From an uncultured Candidatus Saccharibacteria bacterium (GTDB taxonomy: Bacteria; Patescibacteriota; Minisyncoccia; Phycocordibacterales; UBA9973): a stretch of 60,336 nucleotides of DNA. The stretch is taken from the NCBI GenBank assembly GCA_964446965.1, contig CAYUQD010000004.1, forward strand, positions 1-60,336, given 5' to 3'. Under the pieces are notes generated by a model. It was given only the letters and a program-made list of their open reading frames with translations. It was not told the DNA's origin and did no database searches. Positions within the stretch are counted from its first letter, which is position 1. The number at the start of each line of letters is the position of its first letter. Below are positions 11,265 through 59,290 of this stretch, piece by piece. The translations under genes and the position numbers were made by a program.

Positions 11265-11376
11265 GCTCGATTTGCATCAAGAGGATTTGGGCGAGACGTT
11301 CGACAAAGAAGTCCAAGTCTTTTGGATTCATAGGGACCTGTGCAGGGACCGGATTGTTGTCGAGCGTCTGGTCCAT
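11215..11376 (-). CDS. Possible 53-aa small ORF, translationally coupled
   Basis: ATG sits 2 nt after the TAA of the upstream 83-aa gene. The ORF overlaps the start of the 157-aa gene. Below the ORF-track cutoff and read by hand. Confidence 0.25.
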   Translation of the reverse strand: MDQTLDNNPVPAQVPMNPKDLDFFVERLAQILLMQIEHENEHEEQTSRIPEAV

Positions 11377-11378
11377 GA

Positions 11379-11630: not shown

Positions 11631-11718
11631 TGATAATCGCCAATAAAAAATAGGCTTGTGTACAGCCTACTTTCGGGGGAGTGATTCAATTTCGAATACT
11701 GCGACTCAAGTGAGTCAC

Positions 11719-12483: not shown

Positions 12484-12632
12484 ACGGAGTTGATCACGTT
12501 CAGCTTTAGCGATTATAGCTATTTTGAGTATTTTTAACAGCCCCTACACCTGCTGTGGGGTATTGCTTTCCAAATCGGGATAATATACAATCAGAAAAGA
12601 ATGTAAGGTAAAAACTAACATTCAGTCCAGAT

Positions 12633-13232: not shown

Positions 13233-13266
13233 GGAAAAGAATAATGAGAATGAAAATGAACATCAT

Positions 13267-16221: not shown

Positions 16222-16249
16222 ATTATCAATTTTAATTATCATTACATTT

Positions 16250-17296
16250 ATGAACGAATCAAAAGACATAATCCCTCAAGAGTCCGATTTTCTTCTCTAC
16301 ACCACTCCAGAAGGTGGTGTACGTGTGGATGTACTATTCCATGATGAAACTGTTTGGCTAACCCAAAAAAGAATGGCCGAATTGTTCGGTGTTGATGTGC
16401 GAACAATCAATGAACACATCCAAAATATTTACAAAGGTCAAGAGCTTTCTGAGGAGGCAACTATCCGGAATTTCCGGATAGTTCAAAAAGAGGGAAACCG
16501 CGATGTAAATCGGGATATTGAGTTCTATAACCTTGACGTTATCATTTCTGTGGGTTACAGAGTGAACTCTGAAAAGGCTACCCGATTTCGTACATGGGCA
16601 ACACAAACACTCCGCAATTACATCGTCAAGGGATTTGCTATTGATGATGAGCGATTGAAGAACGGCATTCATTTTGGTAAAGATTATTTTGATGAGTTAC
16701 TTGAGAAGATCCGGGAGATTCGTGCGAGCGAACGCCGGTTCTACCAGAAAATCACTGATCTCTATGCGGAGGCGAGCATTGATTATGACAAGGACTCCGA
16801 GATTACTCAAAAATTTTTCAAAACAGTTCAGAATAAATTGCATTGGGCAATAACTGGGCACACTGCAGCTGAATTAGTTGCGGGACGGGCAGATAGTGAT
16901 AAGCCCAAGATGGGACTTTCAACATGGAAGAATGCCCCTAAGGGTAAGGTTATGAAATCAGATGTTTCTGTTGCCAAAAATTATCTTGAAGAAAAAGAAA
17001 TGTCTGAATTGAACCGAGTAGTATCAATGTATTTGGATTATGCTGAAAATCAAGCAAAAAAACAGCGTCCGATGAGTATGGCTGAATGGGTTGAAAAGCT
17101 CGATGCGTTCTTGCGGTTTAACGAATACGAGATTCTCGACAACCCAGGAAAGATTTCACACGAGGTTGCAAAAGAGCTTGCGGAAAAAGAATACGAAAAG
17201 TACCGGGTGATTCAGGATCAAGAGTTCATTTCCGATTTTGACAAGGAAACAAAGAGATATCTTGATGGAGGGGAACCTAGTAGTGAACAAAAATAA
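16250..17296 (+). CDS. RhuM-family protein
   Basis: VWLTQKRMAELFGVDVRTINEHI...YNLDVIISVGYRVNS..ATRFR.WAT is the RhuM signature, a family often embedded in R-M loci. Confidence 0.75.
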   Translation: MNESKDIIPQESDFLLYTTPEGGVRVDVLFHDETVWLTQKRMAELFGVDVRTINEHIQNIYKGQELSEEATIRNFRIVQKEGNRDVNRDIEFYNLDVIISVGYRVNSEKATRFRTWATQTLRNYIVKGFAIDDERLKNGIHFGKDYFDELLEKIREIRASERRFYQKITDLYAEASIDYDKDSEITQKFFKTVQNKLHWAITGHTAAELVAGRADSDKPKMGLSTWKNAPKGKVMKSDVSVAKNYLEEKEMSELNRVVSMYLDYAENQAKKQRPMSMAEWVEKLDAFLRFNEYEILDNPGKISHEVAKELAEKEYEKYRVIQDQEFISDFDKETKRYLDGGEPSSEQK

Positions 17297-17299
17297 TTT

Positions 17300-21716: not shown

Positions 21717-21740
21717 CTTGCCGGTCGCCGAAGAATTAAA

Positions 21741-23252
21741 ATGACAATGAATATGAAATTATCGAAAACAGACTTTTTAATATGTCTCGACTGTGCAAAG
21801 AATGCATGGCTCAAGATACATAAGCCCGATATTTATAAAAAATATCCGTTGTCTTCTTTTGAATTGAACATTATCAATACAGGCAATCAAATTGACGAAC
21901 TCGCACGGGGCTTATTTCCGGATGGAGTGACTGTCGAATCACGCGACGATACGGAATTCACTAATAAATTTCTTTCAAATAAGACACCAGTAATTTATCA
22001 ACCAGTTTTTACTACAGATAAATTCATTACCGCCTCGGATATTTTTGTATGGAATGTAGGCACAGGTGTGTACGATCTCTATGAAGTAAAATCATCTACT
22101 GCCTCTGATGAGGGAGGGGGACGCAAAACTGAAGAATACTTGGTAGATATGGCATTTCAGAAAGTCATACTCAATGACTTGGGTATTCAAATCGGGACCA
22201 CGAGTCTCATTCGTCTAAATAAAGAATACGTGCGAATGGGAGATATTAATCTACAGGAACTTTTCTTTATCGAAAACCTCACTGACCAAGTGAATGAAAA
22301 ACTTGAAGAGATAAAGCAAAAGATGGAAGGGGTTTACGAATATTTTGTGAAAGAAGCTGAACCTGTCGGACACTGTGATTGTATTATGAAAGGTTGGAAT
22401 TCTCACTGCACGACTTCAGGCCACTCTAATTCTGATCTTCCAGAATATCCTGTTCATGCTATATCTCGTATTCATAAGAAAAAACTGGCAGAGTTGGTTG
22501 ATAGTAATATTTTCAGCATTCACGATGTGCCGGACGACTTTGAATTATCTGATAATCAGCGCAGGCAAGTAGATACGGCGCAGTCGGGCAAGGAATATAT
22601 TGATAAAGATGGTATATCAGATTTTTTGCAGACTATGCAGTACCCACTCGCTTTTCTCGATTATGAAACATACCCATCTGCAATTCCCAAGTACAACGGC
22701 TACAGGCCGTATCAGCAAATTCCGTTTCAGTTTTCACTTCATGTGATTGAAGCGCCGAACGGTGAGTCCGTCCATTATGATTTTATTTACACTGATCAAG
22801 TTTGTCCGGACGAACATTTTGCCGAAGCATTAAAAAAGCATTTACCAAAAACAGGTAGTGTTGTTGTCTGGAATCAGAAATTTGAAAAAGGCATCAACGA
22901 ACAGCTAGGGGAACACTTGCCAGGGTATAAGGATTTTATGGAGGAAGTTAATGTCCGTGTCGTTGATTTAATGATTCCATTCTATGGTAAAACAACGATG
23001 TACGATCATCCTGAATTTAAGGGTAGTGCATCGATCAAGTATGTTTTACCCGCTCTTGTCCCGACTTTGTCCTACAAAAAAATGCATATTCAAGAGGGTG
23101 GAACTGCATCAGATACATGGAACCGTATCGTGTCCGGTGAGTATTCAGAAGAAGATAAAAATATGAAGATACAGGCACTCAAGGATTATTGTCATCTTGA
23201 TACTTTGGCGATGGTTGAAATTTGGCGAGTTTTGAACAGCTCATCATCCTAG
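21741..23252 (+). CDS. DUF2779-family protein (N-terminal Cas4/RecB-like nuclease fold, C-terminal exonuclease-like fold)
   Basis: LSKTDFL..LDC.KNAWL, YDLYEVKSST, and FLDYETYPSAIPKYNGYRPYQQIPFQFSLHV match the DUF2779 pattern. Confidence 0.7.
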   Translation: MTMNMKLSKTDFLICLDCAKNAWLKIHKPDIYKKYPLSSFELNIINTGNQIDELARGLFPDGVTVESRDDTEFTNKFLSNKTPVIYQPVFTTDKFITASDIFVWNVGTGVYDLYEVKSSTASDEGGGRKTEEYLVDMAFQKVILNDLGIQIGTTSLIRLNKEYVRMGDINLQELFFIENLTDQVNEKLEEIKQKMEGVYEYFVKEAEPVGHCDCIMKGWNSHCTTSGHSNSDLPEYPVHAISRIHKKKLAELVDSNIFSIHDVPDDFELSDNQRRQVDTAQSGKEYIDKDGISDFLQTMQYPLAFLDYETYPSAIPKYNGYRPYQQIPFQFSLHVIEAPNGESVHYDFIYTDQVCPDEHFAEALKKHLPKTGSVVVWNQKFEKGINEQLGEHLPGYKDFMEEVNVRVVDLMIPFYGKTTMYDHPEFKGSASIKYVLPALVPTLSYKKMHIQEGGTASDTWNRIVSGEYSEEDKNMKIQALKDYCHLDTLAMVEIWRVLNSSSS

Positions 23253-46306: not shown

Positions 46307-46431
46307 AAAAATAATTATTTTGGTTTAATTCACCCTACCAAACATTGAACTTTTGTCAACTTTGACATATGAGGTAGAAAGGGTAATGTTGGGACAAATA
46401 AACAAAATTTCATAATTTAAATTCTTTGAAA

Positions 46432-47064
46432 ATGAAAAAACAGAAAATAATTTCCGTTACTAAATGGGCTGTTTTGGAAGAATGCAGACTCATCGAAAAT
46501 CACGAAGAGGTTCTTGATATCGTCAATGAAGCTCGAACATTAGGATTAAAAATTATATACACAATGGGTGCATACGACATGTTCCATGTCGGACATGCTC
46601 GATACGTAAGAAAGGCAAAAGAAAAAGGAGATCTGCTCATTGTTGGTGTTGATTCTGATGAATATATCAAAGCAACAAAAGGAGAAGATCGGCCAGTTGT
46701 ACCATATGTAGAGCGCTCAGAGATGCTGATTGAAAATCGATCAGCAGACATTGTTGTAATGCTTCAAACACAGGATGCAAATATGCAATTAGTTGAGATG
46801 ATTCGTCCTGATGCCGTAGTACTTTCATTCAGTAGTACAAAAGAAGATGTATCTATTTATCAGAAAAGAATGAATGAAAAATACGGTAAATACTGCGGTG
46901 ATGTAATCATATTTGAGCGGCAGGCTGAAACTTCAACAAGTGCAAAAATACGTCTCATTGTTATAGATGGTGCAAAAACGCTTCTCGATAAAATTCAAAA
47001 AACTATTGATGAGCTCACAGAAGCATATAAATCATTCTTCAAAAAAAATGGAGGTGAATCATGA
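46432..47064 (+). CDS. Cytidylyltransferase-fold nucleotidyltransferase (TagD/RfaE-II/RibL-like) with a C-terminal extension
   Basis: GAYDMFHVGHARYVRKAKEKGDLLIVGVDSDE (HxGH motif). TTG at 46426 is possible. The stop overlaps the next start (ATGA). Confidence 0.65.
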   Translation: MKKQKIISVTKWAVLEECRLIENHEEVLDIVNEARTLGLKIIYTMGAYDMFHVGHARYVRKAKEKGDLLIVGVDSDEYIKATKGEDRPVVPYVERSEMLIENRSADIVVMLQTQDANMQLVEMIRPDAVVLSFSSTKEDVSIYQKRMNEKYGKYCGDVIIFERQAETSTSAKIRLIVIDGAKTLLDKIQKTIDELTEAYKSFFKKNGGES

Positions 47065-47918
47065 AAGAAGAAATAGCAATCGTATTGTACATGCCAGCTT
47101 TGCACAAAGGGTATTTAGATCTCATCAAGAAGGATGATAGGAACATCGATACGATTTTCCTCATTAGCGAAACATTGGTAAAAGAAACCGATGAGGAGCT
47201 TGCTTGGATGTTTGAAAAAGACCTTCGAGCAGTATCGGCTACTGAAATGCAACTAGCGCTTTCCGCCTTACAGCTCGCAAGTAGTGTAAAAATTTTGGAT
47301 GAACATAATCTTGTAGGATTTAATCTTGTTATCATTCCAGATAATGATGATTTAGTGGAAAAAATAGTATCAAAATTATATCCACTCATTGTCCCTCAAA
47401 AAGAGAAATGGTTTATCCGGTGGGGTAAGAAGACCGTACTATCACAACGTGCACCTGTTCCAACTGCAAGTATTTCAACCACTGAACTTGATCAGGAAAT
47501 TATGATGAAAGCTTTTAGTTTTGCTGAAAAAAGCTCAGACTGGTGGAGACAGGTAGGTGTGATTATTTTTCCATTACATGGACAACCAATTACAGGATTC
47601 AACCAGCACGTGCCGCATCCACAGGCTCCATATATAAATGGTGATCCACGGACAAATTTTAAACCCGGTGAATATATTGAGTTGTCTACAGCAGGACATG
47701 CAGAACCAACAGTAATTGGTTTTGCTAGTAGAAAAGGAATTGTTCTTGATGGTGCAAGTATTTATGTAACAACTCTTCCTTGTCCTGCCTGTGCATGGCT
47801 TATTATGAGTTGTGGCTTCAAGAAAGTATATTACTGCGAAGGGTATTCACAAATGGGTTCGATCGAAACATTTCAAAATGCTGGAATAGAAGTGATCTTT
47901 GTCGACGTCCCAAAATAA
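47061..47918 (+). CDS. dCMP/cytidine deaminase-fold domain fused to an N-terminal ~140-aa domain of unknown function
   Basis: Zinc motifs HAEPT and PCPACAWLI in the C-terminal half. The N-terminus has a degenerate nucleotidyltransferase-like LHKGY. Confidence 0.65.
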   Translation: MKEEIAIVLYMPALHKGYLDLIKKDDRNIDTIFLISETLVKETDEELAWMFEKDLRAVSATEMQLALSALQLASSVKILDEHNLVGFNLVIIPDNDDLVEKIVSKLYPLIVPQKEKWFIRWGKKTVLSQRAPVPTASISTTELDQEIMMKAFSFAEKSSDWWRQVGVIIFPLHGQPITGFNQHVPHPQAPYINGDPRTNFKPGEYIELSTAGHAEPTVIGFASRKGIVLDGASIYVTTLPCPACAWLIMSCGFKKVYYCEGYSQMGSIETFQNAGIEVIFVDVPK

Positions 47919-47956
47919 TAAAACTGCTGATTGTTACATCAGCAGTTTTTTTGTTT

Positions 47957-48394
47957 TTACTTAAGAGGAATTCTAACGCCAGGACCATTTGGATCTGCTG
48001 CAATGATATGCCCGTGCAATCTTTTTACGGTTGCTCCGGTAAGATCAGTATCACCATATCGCATCCAATATCCACCGCCTTTAATTTCATACTCCGTGTT
48101 CATCTCAGCAATTACTTTTTGAAATTCAACAATTGCCTCAACGGGCAATTCTTCAAAAAGTTCAACATATATATTTGAGATTACCATGAAATGATGAATG
48201 GATCCGGGGTAGGGGTGAGCTGTCCTGGTAACGAACCAGTGATTGTAGTGCTTCAATATTGGGTATGGGTGATTCCTTAAGATATATTCTGGATCAAAAG
48301 GATCTATCCCATCGTCAATAATTTTTTGAAGCATTTCGATGTATCTTTCTCTCCCTCTTGCATTCTTGATGTTAACAAAGACTTTCTTTTCCAT
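47957..48394 (-). CDS. HIT-like nucleotide hydrolase/transferase (tentative)
   Basis: C-terminal VKRLHGHIIA resembles a partial histidine-triad motif. Confidence 0.45.
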   Translation of the reverse strand: MEKKVFVNIKNARGRERYIEMLQKIIDDGIDPFDPEYILRNHPYPILKHYNHWFVTRTAHPYPGSIHHFMVISNIYVELFEELPVEAIVEFQKVIAEMNTEYEIKGGGYWMRYGDTDLTGATVKRLHGHIIAADPNGPGVRIPLK

Positions 48395-48493
48395 AAGTGA
48401 AATTTTGCTTACTTTACCATAGGTTTATAAATAAGCAACTGATTAAAAAAGCCTCTTTCGTTTTAGAAAGAGGCTTCAAATTTTGTTACATAC

Positions 48494-49375
48494 TTACACA
48501 GTAATATCGCCTTTGATTTTTGGGTGCGGATCATAATTCCTAATTTCAACATCTTCTGGTTTAAATTCAAAGATATCTTTTATATCAGGATTTATGTATA
48601 GCTGCGGAAGCTCTTTTGGTGGTCTCGTCAGCTGTAGTTTCATTTGCTCAACATGGTTCTCATAAATATGAGCGCTTGCTTCTGAAACAATTAGTCTTCC
48701 TGGTGTATACCCAGTAACCTGTGCAATGAAAGATAACTGTAATGCATACTGAGCAATATTAAATGGAACTCCTAAAAAGAAATCACCGCTTCGCTGATAC
48801 AGTTTCATATTCAAAAACTTTTCATCAGCAGAAACACTGCACTGGAAAAACGGATGACATGATCTAAGCTTTACCTTATTGAATCCAAGGTCGGGTGGAT
48901 TCCACGCACTTACCAACATTCCTTTTGAGTGTGGAGCACGCTTTATCTCATTGATTAAGTCTTGAATCTGGTCAATAGTACTACCATCTGGTGTTCGCCA
49001 GTTTCTCCACTGTTGTCCATAAATTGGACCTAGGTCGCCGTTTTCATCAGCCCATTCATCCCAAATTTTTACCTTTCTTTCGTTTAAATATCTCGTGTTC
49101 GTATCACCAGATAACATCCACACGAGTTCGGTTGCGATGGTTTTCATAGGCATACCTTTTGTCGTCATAAGTGGAAATCCTTTTGTAAGGTCAAATTCCA
49201 TTTGAACGGTCCCAAAGAATTCAAGGTCATCAGTCTTTCTACCTTTCTTAAGAGGTTGATCCAGTATGGGTTGAACCCAGCGGAGATACTCGTAATCCAC
49301 ATGGAATGGAGTGTATTGTTCTGTATGGTAAGGCATTATTCCAGTAGCCTGCCATTTTTGTAGTTGTGTATCCAT
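48494..49375 (-). CDS. thyA: Thymidylate synthase (ThyA family)
   Basis: IWDEWADENGDLGPIYGQQWR.W.TPDG..IDQI, SCHPFFQ, LYQRSGDFFLGVPFNIAQYAL, HIYENH, YDPHP.IK. Confidence 0.8.
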   Translation of the reverse strand: MDTQLQKWQATGIMPYHTEQYTPFHVDYEYLRWVQPILDQPLKKGRKTDDLEFFGTVQMEFDLTKGFPLMTTKGMPMKTIATELVWMLSGDTNTRYLNERKVKIWDEWADENGDLGPIYGQQWRNWRTPDGSTIDQIQDLINEIKRAPHSKGMLVSAWNPPDLGFNKVKLRSCHPFFQCSVSADEKFLNMKLYQRSGDFFLGVPFNIAQYALQLSFIAQVTGYTPGRLIVSEASAHIYENHVEQMKLQLTRPPKELPQLYINPDIKDIFEFKPEDVEIRNYDPHPKIKGDITV

Positions 49376-49453
49376 ATTTTATTTTTTTAAATTTGTCCAA
49401 ATACTACCTTTATTTAGACCAAAGTCAAACGATGAAAATGTTACAATTTCTTC

Positions 49454-49876
49454 ATGCAAATCCGGGTGAAAAAGTTGGATCCATCGTTGCCAGATCTGTG
49501 CTACGCAAAGCCAGGCGATGCAGGCTTTGATCTGTATGCTCGTGAAGTGACGGTGTTGGAGCCAGGTGTACAGACCGCAGTAGCGACCGGAGTGTCTATT
49601 GAGCTCCCCGTAGGCTACGTCTCGCTCGTCTGGGACAAGAGTGGGCTCGCCATCAAGCATGGCCTCAAGGTCCTCGGTGGAGTCATCGACGCAGAGTACC
49701 GTGGCGAGTACATGGTCGGGATGATCAACCTCTCTGACAAGCCATATACCTTCGAGAAAGGGGACAAGGTCGCGCAGGTGTTGATACAGAAAGTTGAACA
49801 CGTGACATTTGAGATGGTCGATGAGCTCTCGGAGACAGCACGTGGAGCGACGGGCTTTGGCAGCTCGGGCAAGTAG
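49454..49876 (+). CDS. dut: dUTP diphosphatase
   Basis: GDAGFDLYA, GVIDAEYRGE, RGATGFGSSG. Confidence 0.85.
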   Translation: MQIRVKKLDPSLPDLCYAKPGDAGFDLYAREVTVLEPGVQTAVATGVSIELPVGYVSLVWDKSGLAIKHGLKVLGGVIDAEYRGEYMVGMINLSDKPYTFEKGDKVAQVLIQKVEHVTFEMVDELSETARGATGFGSSGK

Positions 49877-49918
49877 GGTCCAATAGCAAAACACGGGTTT
49901 TCTGTTAGAATCACTGGT

Positions 49919-51610
49919 ATGAACGACTATCTCGCAAAGTATGTATCCAAGGCAGTCCATGCTCTATTTGGGATTACCGGCGACTACGTCATCGAGCACC
50001 CCAAGGATATGTCGCACGGCGACTATGCGACCAGTGCAGCACTTGCTGTAGCAAAGCACGTCGGCAAGAGTCCGATCGAGGTTGCCACAGCACTCGTCGA
50101 GGAGTTGGAGAAAAATAAAGAAGCCTTCATCGAACGCATCGAGATCGCAGGTCCTGGTTTCATCAACTTCACCCTCGCTCGCGCGCATTTTGTATCTGCG
50201 ATCAGTGAAGCCGCCAATGTATCGATGTACGGACACACCAACGTATATGCGGGCAAGAATATATTGGTAGAGCACTCATCTCCCAACCTCTTCAAGCCAT
50301 TCCACATTGGTCACCTCATGAACAACACGATCGGGGAGAGTATTACTCGTCTCGCGCGCATGTCAGGTGCACAGGTATCTACGGTCTCATTCCCATCTGA
50401 TATCTCACTCGGAGTCGCAAAGGCGATCTTCATTCTCCTTGAGAACTATGGCGCAGACTATGTACCGACTGATGTCGCAGTACTCGGAGATGCATATGTG
50501 GAGGGCGTGAAGCGATACGATGATACTGAGAGTCCATCATGTGGTAGTACGCAGTACCGCGTCAAAGAAATCGCCGACAACCTCTATACTGGCAAGGACT
50601 CTCCAGAATTGAAACTCTATAATACATGTAAGAAATTCAATATCGAGTATTTCGAAACCATCGTCGCAAAACTCGGTTCACACTTCGACGCATATATATA
50701 TGAGAGCGAGGCAGGAGTCGATGGTGCAAAGATCGTCAAAGAGAATACCCCAAAGGTCTTTACTCAAAGTGATGGTGCGATCGTGTATATACCAGACGAA
50801 TCAAAGAAAAGTTTGCACACTGCAGTATTCATCAACTCCCAAGGCAACCCTACCTACGAAGCCAAGGACATTGGGCTCCTCGATCTCAAGTTCCGTCGCT
50901 ACAATCCTGACCTCTCCATATTCATCACCGACGTTCAGCAAGTCTCGCATTTTGGTGTCGTGCTCGATGCTGCCACCCATATCAATAGTGACTGGGCTGA
51001 GAAATCCCTCCACCGATACCACGGTCGCATGACATTCAAAGGGCAAAAGATGTCGTCTCGTCTCGGCGGGGTACCGCTCGTCACCGACGTACTCACTACT
51101 GTAGTCGAAGAAGTGAAGGAGAAAAATAGTGACATAGACGACGCAACTGCAGAGACGATCGGCATCGCTGCGATCAAGTTTGCAATATTGCGCGCAGCAG
51201 CGGGGAGCAACATCAACTTCGATCCTGAGACATCACTCTCGTTCATTGGAGACTCGGGTCCGTACCTCCAGTACACAGCCGTGCGTGCACAGGCACTATT
51301 ATCAAAGGGGAGTGAGGCAGGCATTGCTCCCGATGCGACAACTGCCGTTGCTGGCACAGAGACTATCGAGCGTCTCATTGCACGGTTCCCCGAATTCATG
51401 ACCCTCTCGCAGAGAGAATGGGCACCGCATCATATCGTCGGGTATCTCCTCGATGTCGCGCAAGCATTCAACTCTTGGTATGGGCAAGGCAAGATCATCG
51501 ATGAAGACACTACTGCAACCGCATATAGACTCGCCGTCGTGAAGGCAGTGCGCCAGACACTCGTCAACGGACTCGAGGTGTTGGGTATAGAAGTACCGGA
51601 TAGGATGTAA
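49919..51610 (+). CDS. argS: Arginine--tRNA ligase
   Basis: SSPN..KPFHIGHLMN (HIGH), KMSSRLG (class I KMSKS-like motif), C-terminal DALR anticodon-binding region, ends in RM. Confidence 0.9.
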   Translation: MNDYLAKYVSKAVHALFGITGDYVIEHPKDMSHGDYATSAALAVAKHVGKSPIEVATALVEELEKNKEAFIERIEIAGPGFINFTLARAHFVSAISEAANVSMYGHTNVYAGKNILVEHSSPNLFKPFHIGHLMNNTIGESITRLARMSGAQVSTVSFPSDISLGVAKAIFILLENYGADYVPTDVAVLGDAYVEGVKRYDDTESPSCGSTQYRVKEIADNLYTGKDSPELKLYNTCKKFNIEYFETIVAKLGSHFDAYIYESEAGVDGAKIVKENTPKVFTQSDGAIVYIPDESKKSLHTAVFINSQGNPTYEAKDIGLLDLKFRRYNPDLSIFITDVQQVSHFGVVLDAATHINSDWAEKSLHRYHGRMTFKGQKMSSRLGGVPLVTDVLTTVVEEVKEKNSDIDDATAETIGIAAIKFAILRAAAGSNINFDPETSLSFIGDSGPYLQYTAVRAQALLSKGSEAGIAPDATTAVAGTETIERLIARFPEFMTLSQREWAPHHIVGYLLDVAQAFNSWYGQGKIIDEDTTATAYRLAVVKAVRQTLVNGLEVLGIEVPDRM

Positions 51611-51664
51611 GTACTATCCTTGACTTCACAACTGTGCATGGTATTGTCATAAAAATTATTCATT

Positions 51665-52261
51665 ATGACAATCATAGGACAACTCGAAATTTTTAGTAAT
51701 CCATTTAACCTTTCATTTATTCTCTCTGGTAGTTCCTCCGAATGGTTTGAGATGATCGACATCTCGGGCCCCAATGTATACAAGAAGCAACTTTTTGTCG
51801 GAGAGCATGTTGCCAGTAGAGAGGAAATGATCCAACGTATTCGCACATTGCTCGCTAATGTGTTGGAGAACGGCAAAAAAGTTTTTGGTGTTTTACCAAA
51901 TGAATTTGGTGAAAACCCGAGATTTTTGACCAAGGGTATGGCGGATAAGATCATTGATACTTTGCAAAAGCCTGACACTTGGCGAGTCGATACGCATTTT
52001 AGTCATTGGAAGAAATTATTTCTTACCAAGCAAGATGGACTCATCGCCGGCCAAAAGATAGTATTGATCTACAAAACCGGCGCAATGAATGGTGAACGCA
52101 GACATTTAACAATCCAATCTGATATCAGAAAGGGATATCAGATGGAATTTGCAGGAAAACTCAAAGATGGTAATCCAGTACAGAGCATCGAGACAACGGC
52201 GGTTGAGGGAACATTCCTTGTATCGACTAGAGACTTTATCTGTACTATTGATATCATTTAG
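51665..52261 (+). CDS. Hypothetical protein
   Basis: 198-aa ORF followed by a terminator. No motif recognised. Confidence 0.45.
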   Translation: MTIIGQLEIFSNPFNLSFILSGSSSEWFEMIDISGPNVYKKQLFVGEHVASREEMIQRIRTLLANVLENGKKVFGVLPNEFGENPRFLTKGMADKIIDTLQKPDTWRVDTHFSHWKKLFLTKQDGLIAGQKIVLIYKTGAMNGERRHLTIQSDIRKGYQMEFAGKLKDGNPVQSIETTAVEGTFLVSTRDFICTIDII

Positions 52262-52269
52262 TTACGACA

Positions 52270-52293
52270 AGCCGCGCATTGCGGCTTTTTTTA
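52270..52293 (+). terminator. Intrinsic terminator
   Basis: agccgc-gcatt-gcggct followed by ttttttt. Confidence 0.6.
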
Positions 52294-52314
52294 TTTCCTG
52301 TACGATATGCGGGT

Positions 52315-52791
52315 ATGATTCACGAAACAGAAGAACGATCCCTTATTATCATTAAGCCAGACGCAGTCCAACGCTCACTCGTCGGAGAGATTATTACTCG
52401 CTTTGAACGCAAAGGTCTCAAGATCATCGGTATGAAGATGATGCATCTTAAAGAGGCATTGCTCAAGGAGCATTACGCACATGTCGCCGACAAGCCATTC
52501 TATCCACGTATCGAGCGCTTCATGATGTCTAGCCCTGTCATTATCATGGCAGTCGCTGGCATCAAGGCTGTGGACGCGATCCGTGTGATCGTGGGACCAA
52601 CCAAAGGGTATGAAGCAACAGCAGGAACGATCCGCGGAGACTTCGCACTCTCGATGCAGAGCAATGTTGTACACGCATCAGACTCTGTAGAGAATGGTGC
52701 AACTGAGATCAAGAGATTCTTTGATGAGAGCGAGATCATTGACTACGACAAAGTAGATACCAAGTTCATATTCTCTGACGACTTGATGTAA
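52315..52791 (+). CDS. ndk: Nucleoside-diphosphate kinase
   Basis: ERSLIIIKPDAV.R.L.GEII.RFE.KGL.I, GTIRGDFA, NVVHASDS. Confidence 0.9.
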   Translation: MIHETEERSLIIIKPDAVQRSLVGEIITRFERKGLKIIGMKMMHLKEALLKEHYAHVADKPFYPRIERFMMSSPVIIMAVAGIKAVDAIRVIVGPTKGYEATAGTIRGDFALSMQSNVVHASDSVENGATEIKRFFDESEIIDYDKVDTKFIFSDDLM

Positions 52792-52849
52792 AAAACTTTT
52801 GTTGTTTGCTTGTGAGGTAACTCAACAACGAAGTTATCCACTGTCTATC

Positions 52850-52877
52850 TTGTCCACACTGGTGAGGAAGATATAAT
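52850..52877 (+). promoter_or_regulatory. Sigma70-like promoter for the sRNA candidate
   Basis: TTGTCC, 16-nt spacer, TATAAT. The predicted start (~52884) coincides with the 5' arm of the long closing stem. Confidence 0.4.
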
Positions 52878-52883
52878 GAACAT

Positions 52884-53082
52884 ACGGCTATTTGAAAATA
52901 GTACTTAGAACATGACGATACGGGTAACCGTTGTAGTTGTCTGGAAACTATGGATGTGCTTTTTATTACGTACATCGAAGTCTCCTTGCAGCTCGCGTGA
53001 CCCACTTGGCTTGAAGCTAAGGTACTATTTTATAAATAGCCGTAACGAACGATCCCTTGGGCATTGCCCAAGGGATTTTTCT
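52884..53082 (+). ncRNA. Candidate ~200-nt structured RNA (unclassified sRNA or cis-leader of the downstream membrane-protein gene)
   Basis: 5' arm acggctatttgaaaatagtacttag (52884-52908) pairs with ctaaggtactattttataaatagccgt (53017-53043). A terminator atcccttgggc-att-gcccaagggat plus T-run follows. No convincing ORF. Confidence 0.35.
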
Positions 53083-53105
53083 GTACGGTGCTGTATACTG
53101 GCGAT

Positions 53106-53504
53106 ATGTATAGACGATTGATTGGGAGCGCAGCACTGGTGGGAATAGGACTATTTGTCGTCAATGCACTCGCCGTGACGTTCTACTGGTATGTATCGAT
53201 CCTATGGTTCGATATGCTCATGCATACGATCGGGGGAGTATTCGTTGCACTTCTCGGAGCAGCGGTACTGTGGCGTCATATCAAGGATCTGCGTGGATGG
53301 GATGTGTTCATCACACTCGCACTCTTTGTATTCATCATCGGGCTCGCATGGGAATACTATGAATACGTCGTGCAGTTCTTTATCAAGAGTGTGCACCTCG
53401 CCGACATATCAGACTCAATATCTGACCTCATCTGTGATATGTGTGGAGGAATGCTCGGCGCAATCTTTGTCATCGTGCTCCAGAAACGGTACAATAGGAG
53501 ATAA
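53106..53504 (+). CDS. Small four-TM membrane protein, unknown function
   Basis: ATG 53106 (MYRRLIGSAALVGIGLF). Four hydrophobic segments. Confidence 0.5.
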   Translation: MYRRLIGSAALVGIGLFVVNALAVTFYWYVSILWFDMLMHTIGGVFVALLGAAVLWRHIKDLRGWDVFITLALFVFIIGLAWEYYEYVVQFFIKSVHLADISDSISDLICDMCGGMLGAIFVIVLQKRYNRR

Positions 53505-54898
53505 TGTCGCAACCATCTTCGTCTTCGATAGAAAAAAAGAACACGCTGAGACTCACCTTTGCTGGTGGGACAGGTTCAGTTACTGGTGCAAACTTTCTCA
53601 TAGAAGGAGAAGGCAAAAAAATCTTGATCGACTGCGGACTCAACCAGGGGACAAAGATGGCCGATGACAAGAACTGGGATCCATTTATCTATGACCCATC
53701 CACGATCGACATCCTCTTTATCACACATGCGCATATCGACCACATCGGACGCATCCCCAAGCTCGTACACGACGGCTTCAAGGGCGAGATATACTCGACG
53801 ATCCCGACCAAGGATATCACTGAGCTCATGCTCGACGACACTGCGAACATTCTCGGTCACTCTGAGAACCCTACACTCAAGGAGATCTATAGCCCAAAGA
53901 TCCTCGAACAAGTATTTCGCAATTGGAAGGTGATCGACTACCATCAGGATCTCACGGTCGGACCATTCGTCTTTCGCTATCGAGACTCTGGACATGTGCT
54001 CGGCTCCGGTATGCTCGAGATGATGTATAATAATAAAAAGATCGTATTCACGGGCGACCTCGGCAACTCACCGTCTCCACTTTTGCGCGATACTGAACCC
54101 CTCAAAAATGTGGACTATCTCCTCATGGAAAGTGTGTATGGTGACCGCAACCACAGCGAGCGCGCTGTACGACGAGAGAAGCTTGAAGCAACCATTGAGG
54201 ATAACTACAAGCGCAAGGGGACACTCGTCATCCCAACATTCTCGCTCGAACGCTCCCAAGAACTTCTCTTTGAGATCGATCAACTCGTCGAACACGACCG
54301 CGTGCCACAGATGCCAATATTCTTTGATAGTCCGCTCGGCATTCGACTCACGACTATCTATGCAAAGTATGGACGATATTTCAATGACCTTGCCCGCAAG
54401 CTCGTCGGGGATGGTAATGACATCTTCAATTTTCCCGGACTCAAGTCAACCCTCCTCACCGAAGAATCCAAAAGCATATTGCACGAGACCAACCCCAAGA
54501 TCGTCATTGCGGGGAGTGGGATGAGTAATGGCGGGCGGGTGCTCCACCACGAAGCCAACTACTTGCCCAACCCCAACAACACGCTTCTCCTCACCGGCTA
54601 CCAATCGTTGGGTACGATGGGACGCGCCATCCAAGACGGCGCAAAGGAAGTGCACATCAATGGTCGTGTCGTACCAGTCAAAGCCAACATCGTCTTTATC
54701 GATGGATACTCTGGTCACAAAGACTCAGATCACCTCATCGAATTCGTTGAACAGATCGCAGACACTGTGAAGAAAGTGTATGTCGCAATGGGCGAGCCAA
54801 AGAGTGCGCTGTATCTCACCCAACGACTGCGTGACTATCTCGGTGTCGAAGCGTTCGCTCCCCAAGAAGGTGATGTGGTAGAATTGGACTGCAATTAA
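53504..54898 (+). CDS. MBL-fold beta-CASP family hydrolase (probable RNA/DNA nuclease)
   Basis: ITHAHIDHIG, FRYRDSGHVLGS, VFTGDLG, beta-CASP motifs, GYSGH.D. Confidence 0.8.
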   Translation: MSQPSSSSIEKKNTLRLTFAGGTGSVTGANFLIEGEGKKILIDCGLNQGTKMADDKNWDPFIYDPSTIDILFITHAHIDHIGRIPKLVHDGFKGEIYSTIPTKDITELMLDDTANILGHSENPTLKEIYSPKILEQVFRNWKVIDYHQDLTVGPFVFRYRDSGHVLGSGMLEMMYNNKKIVFTGDLGNSPSPLLRDTEPLKNVDYLLMESVYGDRNHSERAVRREKLEATIEDNYKRKGTLVIPTFSLERSQELLFEIDQLVEHDRVPQMPIFFDSPLGIRLTTIYAKYGRYFNDLARKLVGDGNDIFNFPGLKSTLLTEESKSILHETNPKIVIAGSGMSNGGRVLHHEANYLPNPNNTLLLTGYQSLGTMGRAIQDGAKEVHINGRVVPVKANIVFIDGYSGHKDSDHLIEFVEQIADTVKKVYVAMGEPKSALYLTQRLRDYLGVEAFAPQEGDVVELDCN

Positions 54899-54903
54899 TA
54901 TCT

Positions 54904-55554
54904 ATGGATACACCTTCACCATCAACCACAAACAAATACGTCTGTTACAACGGCCCAATGGAAAATGGCGAGAAGCATGGCCACATCAAGATCAAGATCG
55001 GCGTGAGTGGTGCAGCAGAGACAGGACATTGTGGACTCAATGCACTCGACAAAGCAAAGGACTTGGGTCGTGAAGTCATCCGACAAGGAGGCATTCTCAT
55101 TACCGGAGCAACCACCGGCTTCCCATTGTGGGCATGTATGGGTGCCAAGGAAGAACACGGTGTATCGATCGGACTCTCTCCAGCAATTAGTGAGAAGGAT
55201 CATGTCGAAGGCTATCACTTGCCGCTCGACTATATGGATCTCATCATCTATACAGGGTTCGGATTCCCAGGACGAGACCTCCTCTTTACTCGGTCGTGCG
55301 ACGCCATCATCATTGGGTGTGGACGCATTGGTACGATTCATGAGTTCACGATCGCATTTGAGGACGGCAAGCCGATGGGTGTACTCGAAGGTCCATGGAC
55401 GATGGCAGAGCAGATCAAGGACATGATCGCAAAGGGCAACCGTCCAGCAGATCGTGTCATCTTTGACGAAGATCCCAAGCGCCTCATCGAGAAAGTGATC
55501 AAGATGGTAGAGTCAGACCGCGAAGCATTACACAAAAACAATCCGCATATCTAA
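54904..55554 (+). CDS. TIGR00725/LOG-like Rossmann-fold protein
   Basis: IGVSGAA......L..A..LG.E....G.ILITGATTG and IIIGCGRIGTIHEF. Confidence 0.6.
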   Translation: MDTPSPSTTNKYVCYNGPMENGEKHGHIKIKIGVSGAAETGHCGLNALDKAKDLGREVIRQGGILITGATTGFPLWACMGAKEEHGVSIGLSPAISEKDHVEGYHLPLDYMDLIIYTGFGFPGRDLLFTRSCDAIIIGCGRIGTIHEFTIAFEDGKPMGVLEGPWTMAEQIKDMIAKGNRPADRVIFDEDPKRLIEKVIKMVESDREALHKNNPHI

Positions 55555-55774: not shown

Positions 55775-58700
55775 ATGGAACAAACACAAACAAACAAATC
55801 AATGGAGAAAAGTAGTGCAGCCCTTCGCGAAGAGGCAGTCTTGGCATTCTGGAAAGAGAACGGGATTTTTGAAAAGACTGTCGCAAAGAACAAGGGGCAA
55901 AAAGAATTCGTATTTTTTGAAGGGCCACCGACTGCGAATGCAAAGCCTGCACTCCATCACCTCGAAGCGCGCGCCTTCAAGGATGTCATTCCTCGATACA
56001 AGACGATGCAGGGCTTCTATGTACCACGCCGCGCTGGGTGGGACACGCACGGACTCCCCGTAGAACTCCAGATCGAAAAGAAGATTGGCTCACAGTCAAA
56101 GAAGGATATCGAAGCGTATGGTATCGCGAAGTTCAATCAGGAATGCAAGGACTCAGTATTCACCCACATCAAGGATTGGGAAGACTTCACGGACCGTATG
56201 GGGTACTGGGTAGACAAGGCATCTGCATACTACACATTCAACCCGTCATATATGGAGAGCTTGTGGAGTATCATTGGCAAGGTTAATGATCGAGGACTCT
56301 TGTACAAAGATTATCGAGTGCTGCCATGGTGCGCGCGCTGTGGTACGACACTTGCAACCCATGAACTCGCGCAAGGATATCAGGATGATAAGGATCTCAC
56401 CGTCTATGCCAAGTTTCCACTCAAGGCCTTTCCCAACGCATACTTCGTCGCATGGACGACGACTCCATGGACATTGCCGGGCAACGTCGCACTCGCAGTG
56501 GGGCCAGATATTGTCTATGTTGAAGCAAAGGTAGGAACAGAAGTATTGATCATTGCAAAAGAACGCATTGCGTTGCTCGGTGAAAACGTGGAGATACTCG
56601 CAGAACACAGGGGGAGTGAGATGGTGGGTATGGAATACGAAGCACTTTATGATGTACCTTCGCTACAATCTGAGAACTCGTACAAAGTGTATGCGGCAGA
56701 CTTTGTCACAACGACTGATGGTACAGGGATCGTACACATCGCACCGATGTATGGAGCGGACGACTTTGCAGTTGCGACAAAACATGGCTTGCCCAAGGTG
56801 CACACCGTAGACGAGGCAGGGCACTTCATTGCGGGAGTGTCATTTCTCGACGGGAGATTTGTGAAGGATGAAGATGTCGCTGTGGATATTATTAAGGACT
56901 TGGCAAACCGTCCGACAGGATCACTCTTGTTCAAGAAAGAAAAGTACGAACACTCATACCCACACTGCTGGAGATGCAAGACGGCGCTCATCTACTACGC
57001 ACGCGACTCATGGTACATCCGCATGAGCGAGCTCCGTGAGGACTTGATCAAGGCAAACGAGACGATCAACTGGGAGCCAGACCATATAAAGGAGGGGAGA
57101 TTTGGCGAATGGATCGACGGTGTCAAAGACTGGGCAATCTCTCGCGAACGATATTGGGGGACACCCCTACCGATCTGGCAGTCTGCGGACGGGGAACGGA
57201 TCGTTGTGGACTCTATCGCCACACTCAAACAGTATGCAAAAAAGTCTGGCAACAACTACTATGTCATGCGACACGGACAGACTGGAAATAATCTAAAAAA
57301 TCTTTGGAGTTGTGATAGTACAATCCCAGATCCATTGACACAAGAAGGGGTAATACAGGTGAGAAATGCCGCTTCACAATTACTCGATAAGAAAATAGAT
57401 ATTATTATTTCGTCGCCATTTCCACGCACACATGAGACAGCAGAATTGATTGCAGATATTTTGAAATATCCAATTGTAAACATTGGTATCGATAAGAGGT
57501 TAGGGGAATGGAATGTGGGTAAAGAATTTGATGGCAAAACTCATGAAGAATATTTTTCTATTCGAAATCAATCAGACGATCGATATGGATTCAAAACAAA
57601 AGATGGAGAATCATATGCAGATGTACTTACACGCTCTGCGGAGTTTATGTACGAAATTGATAAACAATATCACGGAAAAAATATTCTTATCGTCTCACAC
57701 GGTGCCCCAACTCGTGCTATTGAGCTAGTGACAGAAGGATTTTCATACGATACTCTCTTTTCTCGAAATAGGAGTTACAAAAATTTCGACAATGCAGAAA
57801 TTCGTAAAGTAGATTTTGCACCACTTCCTCATAACGACAATTTTGAGCTAGATTTACACCGTCCATATATCGACAGTATCGTCCTCGAGAGAGATGGCAA
57901 GGAATTCCATCGCGTCAAAGAAGTCATGGACGTCTGGTTCGACTCCGGCTCAATGCCATTTGCACAGGATCACTACCCATTTGAACACAAGGATGATCTC
58001 GCATATCCTGGCGATTTCATCTCCGAAGCCATCGACCAGACTCGTGGATGGTTCTATACACTTCTCGCGGTCGGGGTGCTCATGGAGCGTGGCGCTCCGT
58101 ACAAGAACGTCATCTGTCTCGGGCACCTCCTCGACAAGGAGGGTAAAAAGATGAGTAAGTCGATCGGCAACATTGTTGAACCATATGAACAAATGGATAA
58201 ATTTGGTGTAGATGCAGTTCGCTTTTGGATGTATTCGGTGAATGCGCCAGGTGAGAGCAAAAACTATGATGAAAAGTCTGTTGCTGAAATCAATAACAAA
58301 GTATTCAATCTACTCGGCAATGTGTATTCGTTCTACGAACTCTATCGAGACAAGGCGCTCGAAGGGGAATACAAAGCAAGTACCAACGTACTCGATCAGT
58401 GGATCATTGCGCGCCTCAACCAGCTCACCGAAAGTGTAACGAAGGGGCTCGATGTATACGATCTCTTCACCCCAACGCGCGCAATCCGTGAATTTTGCGA
58501 TGATCTCTCGACGTGGTACCTTCGTCGTTCTCGTGATCGACTCAAGGATGGGGATGTGAGCGCAAAGCAGACACTCTATACAGTGCTCAAAACTACAGCC
58601 CAACTCATTGCTCCATTCGCTCCATTCACCGCAGAGGATATGTGGTTGAAGCTCAAGACTGAGAGTGATGAGGAGAGCGTGCACTTGAGTATGTGGCCAA

Positions 58701-59290
58701 AGCTTGGTGCGGTAGATAATGATGTAATTAAAAAAATGGAAGAGATTAGAGAAATTTGTAGTCTCGGTAATGCGGAAAGGAAAAAAAATAATATCGCAGT
58801 ACGACAACCGCTTCAATGGATTCTCGTCAACGACACAAACTTTACGGTAAATGAGGAAGTGTATCTGCAATTAATTAAGGATGAGTTAAATGTAGAAAAA
58901 GTTCTATTGGCGTATTCGATGAATGAAGAAACAACCAAAGTAATCAAAAAAGTTACTATTGATAAAAGTAAAAGAGCTCAACTAGAAACAGAAATTACTC
59001 CAGATCTTAAAATAAAAGGCACTGTAAATGAGGTAAAAAGATATCTGCAAGATTGGCGAAAGGAAAATAATCTGACCATAGAGGACACTGTAACTGGAAG
59101 AATGTATTGTGTTCAGCAGGAATTCTTAATTGGAGAAGGAAAACAAATTCTAGAAGACGGTCTAAAACCTGCCAGATTTGCAATAACTGTTGTTGGTGGC
59201 GCACTGCCAGGAGATCGACTAGATGTATTAAATTTCTCTGTTAATAACATTGAATTTGCTCTCGAGTTTAATATAGTAAAAGGTAAATAA
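55775..59290 (+). CDS. ileS: Isoleucine--tRNA ligase (type 2-like) carrying an inserted histidine-phosphatase domain
   Basis: PPTANAKPALHHL (HIGH region), CP1 editing domain, YPHCWRCKT, WAISRERYWGTPLPIW, DVWFDSGSMPF, KKMSKSIGN. Confidence 0.9.
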   Translation: MEQTQTNKSMEKSSAALREEAVLAFWKENGIFEKTVAKNKGQKEFVFFEGPPTANAKPALHHLEARAFKDVIPRYKTMQGFYVPRRAGWDTHGLPVELQIEKKIGSQSKKDIEAYGIAKFNQECKDSVFTHIKDWEDFTDRMGYWVDKASAYYTFNPSYMESLWSIIGKVNDRGLLYKDYRVLPWCARCGTTLATHELAQGYQDDKDLTVYAKFPLKAFPNAYFVAWTTTPWTLPGNVALAVGPDIVYVEAKVGTEVLIIAKERIALLGENVEILAEHRGSEMVGMEYEALYDVPSLQSENSYKVYAADFVTTTDGTGIVHIAPMYGADDFAVATKHGLPKVHTVDEAGHFIAGVSFLDGRFVKDEDVAVDIIKDLANRPTGSLLFKKEKYEHSYPHCWRCKTALIYYARDSWYIRMSELREDLIKANETINWEPDHIKEGRFGEWIDGVKDWAISRERYWGTPLPIWQSADGERIVVDSIATLKQYAKKSGNNYYVMRHGQTGNNLKNLWSCDSTIPDPLTQEGVIQVRNAASQLLDKKIDIIISSPFPRTHETAELIADILKYPIVNIGIDKRLGEWNVGKEFDGKTHEEYFSIRNQSDDRYGFKTKDGESYADVLTRSAEFMYEIDKQYHGKNILIVSHGAPTRAIELVTEGFSYDTLFSRNRSYKNFDNAEIRKVDFAPLPHNDNFELDLHRPYIDSIVLERDGKEFHRVKEVMDVWFDSGSMPFAQDHYPFEHKDDLAYPGDFISEAIDQTRGWFYTLLAVGVLMERGAPYKNVICLGHLLDKEGKKMSKSIGNIVEPYEQMDKFGVDAVRFWMYSVNAPGESKNYDEKSVAEINNKVFNLLGNVYSFYELYRDKALEGEYKASTNVLDQWIIARLNQLTESVTKGLDVYDLFTPTRAIREFCDDLSTWYLRRSRDRLKDGDVSAKQTLYTVLKTTAQLIAPFAPFTAEDMWLKLKTESDEESVHLSMWPKLGAVDNDVIKKMEEIREICSLGNAERKKNNIAVRQPLQWILVNDTNFTVNEEVYLQLIKDELNVEKVLLAYSMNEETTKVIKKVTIDKSKRAQLETEITPDLKIKGTVNEVKRYLQDWRKENNLTIEDTVTGRMYCVQQEFLIGEGKQILEDGLKPARFAITVVGGALPGDRLDVLNFSVNNIEFALEFNIVKGK
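57245..57850 (+). other. In-frame histidine-phosphatase (PGAM/CobC-type) domain inserted in ileS; AT-rich segment
   Basis: YVMRHGQTGNN, SSPFPRTHETAE, LGEWNVG, ILIVSHGAPTRA, between PLPIW and DLHRPYID. Confidence 0.75.

Follow-up and report, generated by a model that had tools for sequence, protein, structure and literature searches.

A histidine-phosphatase domain nested in the CP3 module of a type 2 isoleucyl-tRNA synthetase of Patescibacteria

The contig CAYUQD010000004.1 of an uncultured Candidatus Saccharibacteria bacterium of the Patescibacteriota (NCBI GenBank assembly GCA_964446965.1) raises the question of why the gene for an essential translation enzyme should carry a second enzyme inside its catalytic body, and what this second enzyme would do there. 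We analyzed positions 1 to 60,336 of the forward strand, a stretch of 60,336 nucleotides that is called the window below. Its ileS gene (55775..59290, forward strand) is a single uninterrupted open reading frame for a type 2 (MupA/MupB-like) isoleucyl-tRNA synthetase (IleRS) of 1171 aa, in which a phosphatase domain is nested. Aminoacyl-tRNA synthetases rank with the best studied and most strongly conserved of all enzymes, and those of eukaryotes are well known to bear appended domains. For a bacterial synthetase to enclose a second intact enzyme in its catalytic body is unusual, and here the arrangement has become fixed in large sections of the CPR (Candidate Phyla Radiation).

A preliminary description of the window had placed a complete histidine-phosphatase domain in frame in the catalytic body of the IleRS, at 57245-57850 (aa 491-692). 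The domain itself is clearly confirmed: the Pfam family His_Phos_1 (PF00300) matches aa 496-679 with an E-value of 2.2e-31 and 109.5 bits against a gathering threshold of 21.7, covers profile positions 2-179 of 194, and breaks the tRNA-synt_1 match (PF00133) into two pieces between which it lies. The four motifs quoted in its support are all present (RHGQTGNN at aa 499-506, SSPFPRTHETAE at 546-557, LGEW at 576-579 and IVSHGAP at 639-645). The location was given correctly as well, and only the borders had to be refined, to aa 489-679 (57239..57811, forward strand); this PhoE/PspA/CobC-like domain is supported by the Pfam match, by the comparison of its profile with the PDB, by model confidence and by the positions of its first and last strands. 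The view that the domain is no intein and stays in the mature protein also holds, given that no Hint or intein family of Pfam was matched; the insert begins at K489. The triplet PHN (aa 685-687) was considered as a candidate intein C-terminus and rejected: the next residue is Asp, and the triplet belongs to the ancestral IleRS linker.

The predicted catalytic set is complete, as had been proposed. On the forward strand, the RHG motif (57269..57277) supplies R499, the predicted nucleophile H500 and G501, R551 (57425..57427) is the predicted second phosphate-binding arginine, E578 (57506..57508) the predicted general acid, and H642-G643 (57698..57703) include the predicted second catalytic histidine. 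Among 120 close homologues, R499, H500, N506, R551, E578, E612, S613, R620, H642 and G643 are invariant, the insert as a whole being less conserved than the body (mean identity to the query 0.54 vs. 0.74-0.81). In 20 distant fusions, the inserts of which are 33-42% identical, the invariant columns are R499, H500, T522, G525, S547, R551, E578, E612, H642 and P685, and they contain the whole histidine-phosphatase catalytic core. H642 is invariant in both sets and G643 in the close family only; G501 is kept in 99% of the close and at least 90% of the distant set. The combination R-H-R-E-H was found in 136 of the 147 complete domains among the representatives, and nine of the remaining 11 have Asp for Glu. 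About half of the other insert positions vary freely while these five residues stay fixed. By this pattern of conservation, purifying selection acts strongly on the catalytic residues of the IleRS inserts, irrespective of site and copy number.

When the profile of the insert family was compared with the PDB, PhoE and the metal-independent phosphoserine phosphatase PspA gave 106 bits each and CobC 86-90 bits; true cofactor-dependent phosphoglycerate mutases (dPGMs) gave about 55 bits over the N-terminal half only (profile positions 8-113). For the insert, no NCBIfam equivalog cut-off was reached: the CobC alpha-ribazole phosphatase model TIGR03162 scored 78 bits vs. 162.9, of the 2,3-BPG-dependent mutase models (NF038349 dPGM_arch; TIGR01258) NF038349 scored 70.4 vs. 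225, and the PspA model NF045917 51.3 vs. 350, although the PspA structure 4IJ5 shares the top rank among the PDB matches. Judging by these profiles, the insert belongs to the small-molecule phosphatase branch of the superfamily and not to the dPGM mutases, and its fold and chemistry can be assigned as those of histidine phosphatase branch 1, with the activity predicted.

The host of the domain appears to be a working synthetase. The NCBIfam model TIGR00392 matches with 869.4 bits vs. a cut-off of 621.4, in two stretches divided by the insert, and the next-ranked NCBIfam matches are the type 2 enzymes MupB and MupA. The MupA and MupB models themselves (NF000257 and NF000258) were not reached (743 and 780 bits vs. 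1900), and by these scores the window IleRS is related to MupA/MupB as an IleRS2, not a member of either. The model for IleRS with an acetyltransferase (ileS_w_GNAT, NF040702) was not reached either (353 bits vs. 1999), nor was any GNAT family matched in the window IleRS. The AlphaFold model of the whole protein has a mean predicted local distance difference test score (pLDDT) of 83, with values above 90 through the insert, and aligns to Priestia megaterium IleRS2 (PmIleRS2, 8c8w) with a target-normalised TM-score of 0.81. The connective peptide 1 (CP1) editing domain is recognizable at aa 201-397, matched by the T. thermophilus structure 1wk8.

In place of HxGH, the class I signature reads ALHH (aa 59-62, 55949..55960, forward strand), unchanged throughout a 67-sequence family alignment. 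ALHH is the natural motif of the D. radiodurans IleRS2, where it is linked to mupirocin hyper-resistance (reported mupirocin Ki 6.6 mM); its function as an IleRS2 variant of the G/AXHH kind is documented (Brkic et al. 2023, PMC10485003). The DVWFDSG motif (57929..57949), which starts the second half of the Rossmann/HUP catalytic core, the KMSKS motif (aa 792-796, 58148..58162) and the anticodon-binding domain (aa 874-1014, 58394..58816; PF08264, E-value 3e-31) follow on the same strand. From the TM-score on 8c8w, the KMSKS motif and ALHH as a functional variant, we judge the synthetase part to be an intact type 2 IleRS with predicted aminoacylation activity. The C-terminal tRNA-binding region (aa 1015-1171, 58817..59287, forward strand) is AT-rich, with a GC content at third codon positions (GC3) of 0.25, and unusually diverged: the type 2 C-terminal domain (DUF5915/ARD3, PF19302), carried by the homologues, is matched here with 21.1 bits vs. 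a cut-off of 27, and the identity of the region to relatives with 80-86% identical bodies is only 32-35%, other such pairs having 50-60%. The window IleRS is also about 40-55 aa longer than its nearest relatives. This region could be a replaced or a fast-evolving tRNA-binding domain.

Where exactly the phosphatase entered the synthetase was established by alignment to PmIleRS2, in which residues 478 and 483 are the counterparts of query aa 488 and 689, respectively, such that about 200 query residues occupy the place of about four in the solved CP3 loop. The flanking motifs are about 850 nt apart in the window gene vs. about 260-410 nt in 67 insert-less IleRS2 genes. The final conserved IleRS motif ahead of the insert is the CP2-CP3 linker DWAISRERYWGTPLPIW (aa 452-468, 57128..57178, forward strand), with its DWAISRERYWG stretch about 27 residues upstream of the insert; it corresponds to the linker 453-465 of ScIleRS, which lines the tRNA/reveromycin pocket (PMC7955072). 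Then follow the N-terminal half of CP3 (aa 469-488, 57179..57238), identified by the alignments with PmIleRS2 and insert-less IleRS2, the phosphatase, and the C-terminal half of the CP3 linker, DFAPLPHNDNFELDLHRPYID (aa 680-700, 57812..57874), all on the forward strand. The latter is IleRS sequence and not insert, given that a similar stretch is found in insert-less IleRS2, e.g., DFGTLPRNPEGEVDLHRPYID in Microbacterium (L034). By alignment of the region with insert-less IleRS2 genes of Bacillota, Bacteroidota, Actinomycetota and Chloroflexota, the DF..LP(H/R)N..ELDLHRPY stretch is part of the ancestral IleRS linker, so that the true insert is aa 489-679, roughly the Pfam domain with very short linkers.

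The published boundaries of the PmIleRS2 HUP core (40-168 plus 513-632; PMC10485003) and of CP3 in Candida IleRS (residues 473-534; PMC7191050) and yeast IleRS (459-526; PMC7955072) place the insert in CP3, the last connective-peptide module. The fold of CP3 differs in each solved IleRS, and in T. thermophilus it includes a zinc knuckle (PMC7191050). The four zinc-knuckle cysteines that flank the loop in PmIleRS2 and T. thermophilus IleRS are missing in the window protein, where the corresponding stretches (57179-57238 and 57875-57928) read QSADGE and ERDGKE. They are retained in other phosphatase-bearing IleRS (L005, L009, L010, L011, P0184, P0251), and some insert-less IleRS2 lack them as well. 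In the AlphaFold model, the first (aa 494-499) and last (aa 676-679) β-strands of the insert bracket the domain and are adjacent, so the phosphatase would hang from the loop and leave the synthetase fold undisturbed.

The window gene is an ordinary member of a large family and not a singular oddity. PF00133 and PF00300 occur together in 120 of the 120 best homologues (61-74% identity, 1056-1183 aa), which were drawn from NCBI, JGI, ENA and Logan assemblies, some on contigs of up to 804 kb; where the hosts are named, they are Candidatus Nomurabacteria, Paceibacterota, Pacebacteria, Minisyncoccia or Patescibacteria. Around ileS, the window and two independent contigs have one gene order in common: β-CASP RNase, SLOG/LDcluster4, ileS, Ser_hydrolase, with the genes of arginyl-tRNA synthetase (ArgRS) and NDK before them. 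The insert alone was also searched against 1.84 billion cluster representatives, and at least 91 of the best 150 matches examined were IleRS fusions or fusion fragments, with synthetase bodies down to 35-45% identity with the query; a stand-alone relative of 198 aa, about 40% identical, is encoded by a separate gene. As IleRS with such distant bodies have the insert in common, the insertion must be ancient. A scan of species-representative genomes gave, among the matches listed, at least 12 loci with the insert and at least 68 without it, the latter in other phyla. The insert-bearing loci were labelled Patescibacteria group, Paceibacteria, Paceibacterota, Yanofskybacteria, Spechtbacterales and 'Saccharibacteria'; one comes from a metagenome-assembled genome labelled 'uncultured Gammaproteobacteria', a label we suspect to be wrong. 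One locus (L014, MGLG01000014.1, Yanofskybacteria RIFOXYD1) translates poorly across the insert, with a run of X and an apparent frameshift, probably because of masking or an assembly error. Taken together, the comparisons allow us to conclude that the architecture is real, ancient and widespread in Patescibacteria.

The preliminary description missed that the phenomenon extends to other loops of IleRS and to valyl-tRNA synthetase (ValRS). Some representatives have two tandem copies at the CP3 site (P0147, P0229), and others have copies elsewhere: motif mapping placed a second IleRS site directly after DxWF(D/E)SGSMP and a third one behind KMSKS, where the anticodon-binding domain starts. Among 120 IleRS related to P0152, 59 copies lie after KMSKS, 44 in CP3 and 12 after WFDSG, and R-H-R-E-H is retained in 120 of the 126 complete copies at the three sites; the named hosts in this set are Gracilibacteria, Peregrinibacteria and Peribacteria. 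These Gracilibacteria-type IleRS with further sites (P0152 (L084), P0246, P0213, P0214, P0396-P0505, L088) reach 1859 aa. On the contig of P0152 there are genes for POR, PurA, DAHP synthase and an SLH protein, a set atypical of a reduced CPR genome.

A protein with four copies, P0137 (L085/L086), proved to be a ValRS by NCBIfam. Among its 120 best matches, about 70 are ValRS-phosphatase fusions, several of them full-length and on contigs of up to 1.37 Mb, and their named hosts are Gracilibacteria or Peregrinibacteria. In ValRS (P0277-P0394, L087), 72 copies lie in the homologous CP3 loop and eight in the CP2 region, with one to four copies per protein. The ValRS copies are less uniform than those of IleRS, with R-H-R-E-H in 56 of 84, and one subclade (e.g., P0301, P0303, P0305, P0315, P0317, P0320) reads R-H-R-S/A-N, having lost both Glu and the second His. 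A complementary distribution, in which a genome has either the IleRS or the ValRS fusion, is refuted by ctg6932c (962,416 bp), which encodes both synthetases with the nested domain; contigs of matching length suggest several more genomes with both, and genomes with only one fusion or none also occur. When copies from the different sites were compared by best hits, all were 30-40% identical, in a sample biased towards fusions. On present sequence evidence, IleRS and ValRS of the CPR carry one to four such domains in several loops (five or more).

The phosphatase is not the only guest in these loops, which also host GNAT, AAA_33 or Zeta-like P-loop kinase, DUF559 and Y1/REP transposase domains. 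The GNAT-bearing IleRS of Gracilibacteria and Peregrinibacteria usually carry His_Phos as well. P0456 has no His_Phos domain and bears, at the post-WFDSG site (residues ~556-975), two tandem HAD phosphatases of the Gph/COG0546 type. The host loops, by their domain content, accept other guest domains, and an unrelated phosphatase family can occupy the same place. P0250 (residues 326-472) and P0478 have a Y1/REP-associated tyrosine transposase domain nested in the CP1/editing region of an IleRS with His_Phos and GNAT domains as well; this transposase domain may be a vestige of how guest domains are delivered.

The DNA of the insert is AT-rich, and in the preliminary description this had been taken as a sign of a separate origin. 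The AT-richness is evident: the GC content falls to 0.34-0.38 across the insert (0.37 overall), and GC3 is 0.27 vs. 0.57 in the N-terminal body and 0.51 in the other flanking synthetase segment. A recent horizontal origin was rejected all the same, on three grounds. The C-terminal domain of the same gene is equally AT-rich, whole genes in the window have GC3 of 0.26-0.31 (between-gene range 0.26 to 0.63), and the contrast between insert and body is absent in the homologue P0050 (0.43 vs. 0.45) and weaker in P0002 (0.37 vs. 0.51). Since the fusion is ancient, composition says nothing on origin. Along the gene, GC3 tracks amino-acid conservation in 30-codon windows (Spearman 0.73, and 0.64 without the insert), and the same heterogeneity within the gene and between window genes follows protein conservation by 30-codon window, not codon by codon; that even the conserved codons of the insert are AT-rich makes the effect a regional one, for which we found no explanation. 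The identity of the insert and that of the body are uncorrelated throughout the family (rho -0.09), insert identity having a plateau near 0.52. A recombinational replacement of the insert is unsupported, as the uncoupling is family-wide and the query is no outlier.

What, then, does the phosphatase do in the synthetase? Our preferred answer, which we hold to be probable, is a bifunctional synthetase with an autonomous small-molecule phosphomonoesterase: a complete phosphatase of the PhoE/PspA/CobC type is nested in CP3 of a working type 2 IleRS, CP3 being a peripheral module, variable in its fold, that lies between the CP2-3 linker and the catalytic core's second half. By the mechanism of the family, H500 would attack a phosphomonoester to give a phospho-histidine intermediate, with the phosphate held by R499, R551 and H642 and the leaving group protonated by E578. 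Its substrate would most likely be small, a phosphorylated metabolite or a nucleotide, and not a macromolecule. Selection would keep catalysis together with attachment to, or co-expression with, a class Ia synthetase, and apparently not the exact geometry. The expectation of autonomy is based on the copy number of one to four, the three IleRS and two ValRS sites, the stand-alone relative, the uncoupled identities and the variability of the CP3 fold. A phosphatase and not a mutase is expected because PhoE, PspA and CobC outscore the dPGMs, and phosphatase activity as the selected trait because P0456 has HAD phosphatases where its relatives have His_Phos.

Three observations weigh against this explanation. 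No equivalog cut-off was reached, and therefore the substrate cannot be read from homology. The ValRS subclade without Glu and the second His implies that catalysis is not universally required. Finally, the repeated nesting in two tRNA-binding synthetases could mean functional coupling and not mere insertion tolerance; that only IleRS and ValRS carry the domain, in company with kinase and acetyltransferase domains, leaves some probability for a link with tRNA or inhibitors. The variety of sites and copy numbers speaks against an exact geometric coupling to the aminoacylation site.

One form of such coupling, which we consider unlikely, is that the phosphatase, kept by the synthetase close to the acceptor end, acts on tRNA, clearing a blocking phosphate (e.g., a 3′-phosphate left by a ribotoxin or nuclease, or some other phospho-modification) from tRNA(Ile) before charging, as an end-healing or quality control step. 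The domain has indeed been recruited repeatedly into tRNA-binding class Ia enzymes, with one genome having both fusions, and CP3 begins at the CP2-3 linker that lines the CCA/reveromycin pocket (PMC7955072). The P-loop kinase nested in relatives has the RNA-repair kinase Pnkp1 as its best solved match, and a kinase with a phosphatase would follow the logic of PNKP; this match, however, is weak (E-value 7.5e-4, 22.7 bits), the nearest relatives of the insert are small-molecule phosphatases, and the HAD analogue, as a capped Gph/COG0546 phosphatase, is not of the PNKP type. The ValRS subclade keeps the phosphate-binding R-H-R without Glu/His, as a binder of phosphate ends might. Still, the three IleRS sites argue against a fixed geometry towards the 3′ end, and there is no clear reason why only IleRS and ValRS would need such an activity. 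No His_Phos_1 enzyme is known to act as an RNA 3′-phosphatase.

In a broader form, to which we likewise assign a small chance, class Ia synthetases of Patescibacteria would be scaffolds for nested His or HAD phosphatases, P-loop kinases and acetyltransferases that act on the ligands of the synthetase itself, i.e., tRNA ends, aminoacyl-tRNA or adenylate-like inhibitors. This would provide built-in tRNA repair, quality control or self-protection, with the IleRS phosphatase as the commonest component.

Rather improbable, in our view, is self-protection as the task of the phosphatase, as of the GNAT and kinase domains nested in relatives, through the inactivation of a natural IleRS/ValRS inhibitor or antimetabolite or by undoing a phosphorylation with which a toxin kinase inhibits the synthetase. 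The GNAT enzyme MccE detoxifies aminoacyl-nucleotide antibiotics, and kinases of the HipA family phosphorylate synthetases. The acetyltransferase, P-loop kinase and phosphatase nested in these enzymes are classical antibiotic-modifying classes, and ALHH, the mupirocin hyper-resistance motif of the D. radiodurans IleRS2, could be a sign of past inhibitor pressure. On the other hand, the nested GNAT domains of the relatives give generic matches only, the neighborhood of ileS shows no toxin-kinase context, and we know of no phosphorylated inhibitor of IleRS or ValRS.

We give equally little credence to the domain being a passenger or structural prop, which would have entered a permissive loop by mobile DNA or illegitimate recombination with its chemistry irrelevant, and would be kept since it cannot be excised precisely from an essential gene or since it stabilizes a CP3 without the zinc knuckle. 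This would account for the Y1/REP transposase and DUF559 endonuclease-like domains in the same loops of relatives, the degenerate catalytic set of the ValRS subclade and the absence of CP3 zinc cysteines in the query lineage; in cyanobacteria, moreover, the CAAD domain sets a structural precedent that is dispensable for catalysis (PMC4893482). What speaks against it is the fixation of five catalytic residues over a very deep IleRS divergence, with about half of the other positions free. The zinc argument is weakened as well, as many fusions retain the cysteines and insert-less IleRS2 have lost them too.

Still less probable is that the insert is the cofactor-dependent phosphoglycerate mutase of the cell, filling a gap in some Parcubacteria. 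Such a gap is reported, phosphoglycerate mutase being absent from several shallow Parcubacteria clades (Jaffe et al. 2020, PMC7304191), and the score of the short archaeal dPGM model NF038349 comes near that of CobC. Both scores, however, are far under their cut-offs, the true dPGMs align over one half of the domain with about half the bits of PhoE and PspA, the dPGM contexts ERHY and HGN read EWNV and HGA/variable here, and two to four copies distributed over two synthetases in some genomes would be odd for a glycolytic enzyme. Lastly, that the junctions are an assembly chimera, favored by the GC drop across the insert and by nothing else, can be dismissed as practically negligible, the frame being uninterrupted and the architecture recurring in hundreds of independent assemblies, on contigs of up to 0.8 Mb, with synteny kept.

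The conserved surroundings of ileS (46426-55554) contain genes for a cytidylyltransferase-like protein, dCMP deaminase, thymidylate synthase, NDK, ArgRS, a β-CASP RNase and SLOG (LDcluster4), and the neighborhoods of two related loci (L001 and L002) add DHFR, NUDIX and dUTPase. By association, these nucleotide-metabolism neighbors are a weak hint at a nucleotide-type substrate. No Rfam leader or T-box was found upstream of ileS, and the window has no paralogous His_Phos gene and no ValRS or leucyl-tRNA synthetase (LeuRS). At a distance, a probable integrated mobile or defense island (8662-23252) lies beside a tRNA gene (8662-8733) and encodes a large serine recombinase (8680-10380, reverse strand), an SNF2-family helicase (13030-16221), an N6/N4 DNA methylase (17300-19072), a ResIII/TnsA-like protein (19023-21716) and a DUF2779 protein (21741-23252). 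Rfam identified another three tRNA genes, a tandem pair (1573-1644 and 1660-1732) and one at 4426-4509.

The recurrence in IleRS and ValRS, in up to four copies, and the replacement by another phosphatase indicate that a tethered phosphatase activity is under selection in tiny genomes. If the domain is an independent metabolic enzyme, essential genes serve as carriers of accessory enzymes, and metabolic reconstructions of the CPR would miss the activity; if it is coupled to tRNA or inhibitors, it represents a new kind of synthetase accessory function. CP3 and the two other loops are natural permissive sites for engineered domain insertions in class Ia synthetases, and both the architecture and the broader tendency of CPR class Ia synthetases to enclose catalytic domains merit experimental follow-up. 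The architecture is seemingly undescribed in the literature, though automatic annotation has seen it: Pfam labels the domain, and JGI gives one protein the name 'isoleucyl-tRNA synthetase/phosphohistidine phosphatase SixA/...GNAT'. A full-text literature search, of incomplete coverage, returned no paper on a phosphatase-bearing synthetase, nor is this form mentioned in the main text of a 2026 survey that covered 109,435 bacterial IleRS.

Several known systems resemble the fusion in part. In fold, in length (about 190-210 aa) and in the R-H-G...R...E...H-G set, the insert is like PhoE (1EBB/1H2E), PspA (4IJ5) and CobC (6NRU), with which it shares the LT..G, SSP..R...TA and GES motifs; unlike the insert, these are free-standing enzymes. 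A histidine phosphatase fused to a nucleic-acid enzyme is known from Rv2228c and M. smegmatis RnhC, which combine RNase H with a CobC-like acid phosphatase (NF005567); the insert matches the phosphatase half of that model with 72 bits, under the cut-off of 326. The two halves of such proteins act autonomously. They are fused end to end, however, and not nested in a loop, and the partner differs. The host, for its part, has the ALHH of the IleRS2 studied by Brkic et al. 2023, its best solved match being a GVHH mutant of PmIleRS2, but none of the IleRS2 described there carries a nested domain (PMC10485003). Like the IleRS2 of NF040702 ('isoleucine--tRNA ligase, N-acetyltransferase domain-containing'), the window enzyme has an extra enzymatic domain within the polypeptide; unlike that enzyme, the phosphatase-bearing form has no curated model.

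The closest parallel in evolutionary terms is CAAD, which was recruited at least eight times into monomeric class I synthetases of cyanobacteria at several internal sites (Olmedo-Verd 2011; Santamaria-Gomez 2016, PMC4893482). In both cases, a lineage-restricted domain derived from a stand-alone protein was recruited repeatedly into synthetases (ValRS, IleRS, LeuRS and others for CAAD), some of the events are ancient, there are hints of transfer from synthetase to synthetase, and the synthetase stays active, as predicted for the window IleRS. CAAD is a membrane anchor and not an enzyme, whereas the guest described here is an enzyme with an intact predicted active site, which lies within the catalytic body, in CP3 (in relatives also in two other loops), often as tandem copies, in the lineage of the Patescibacteria.

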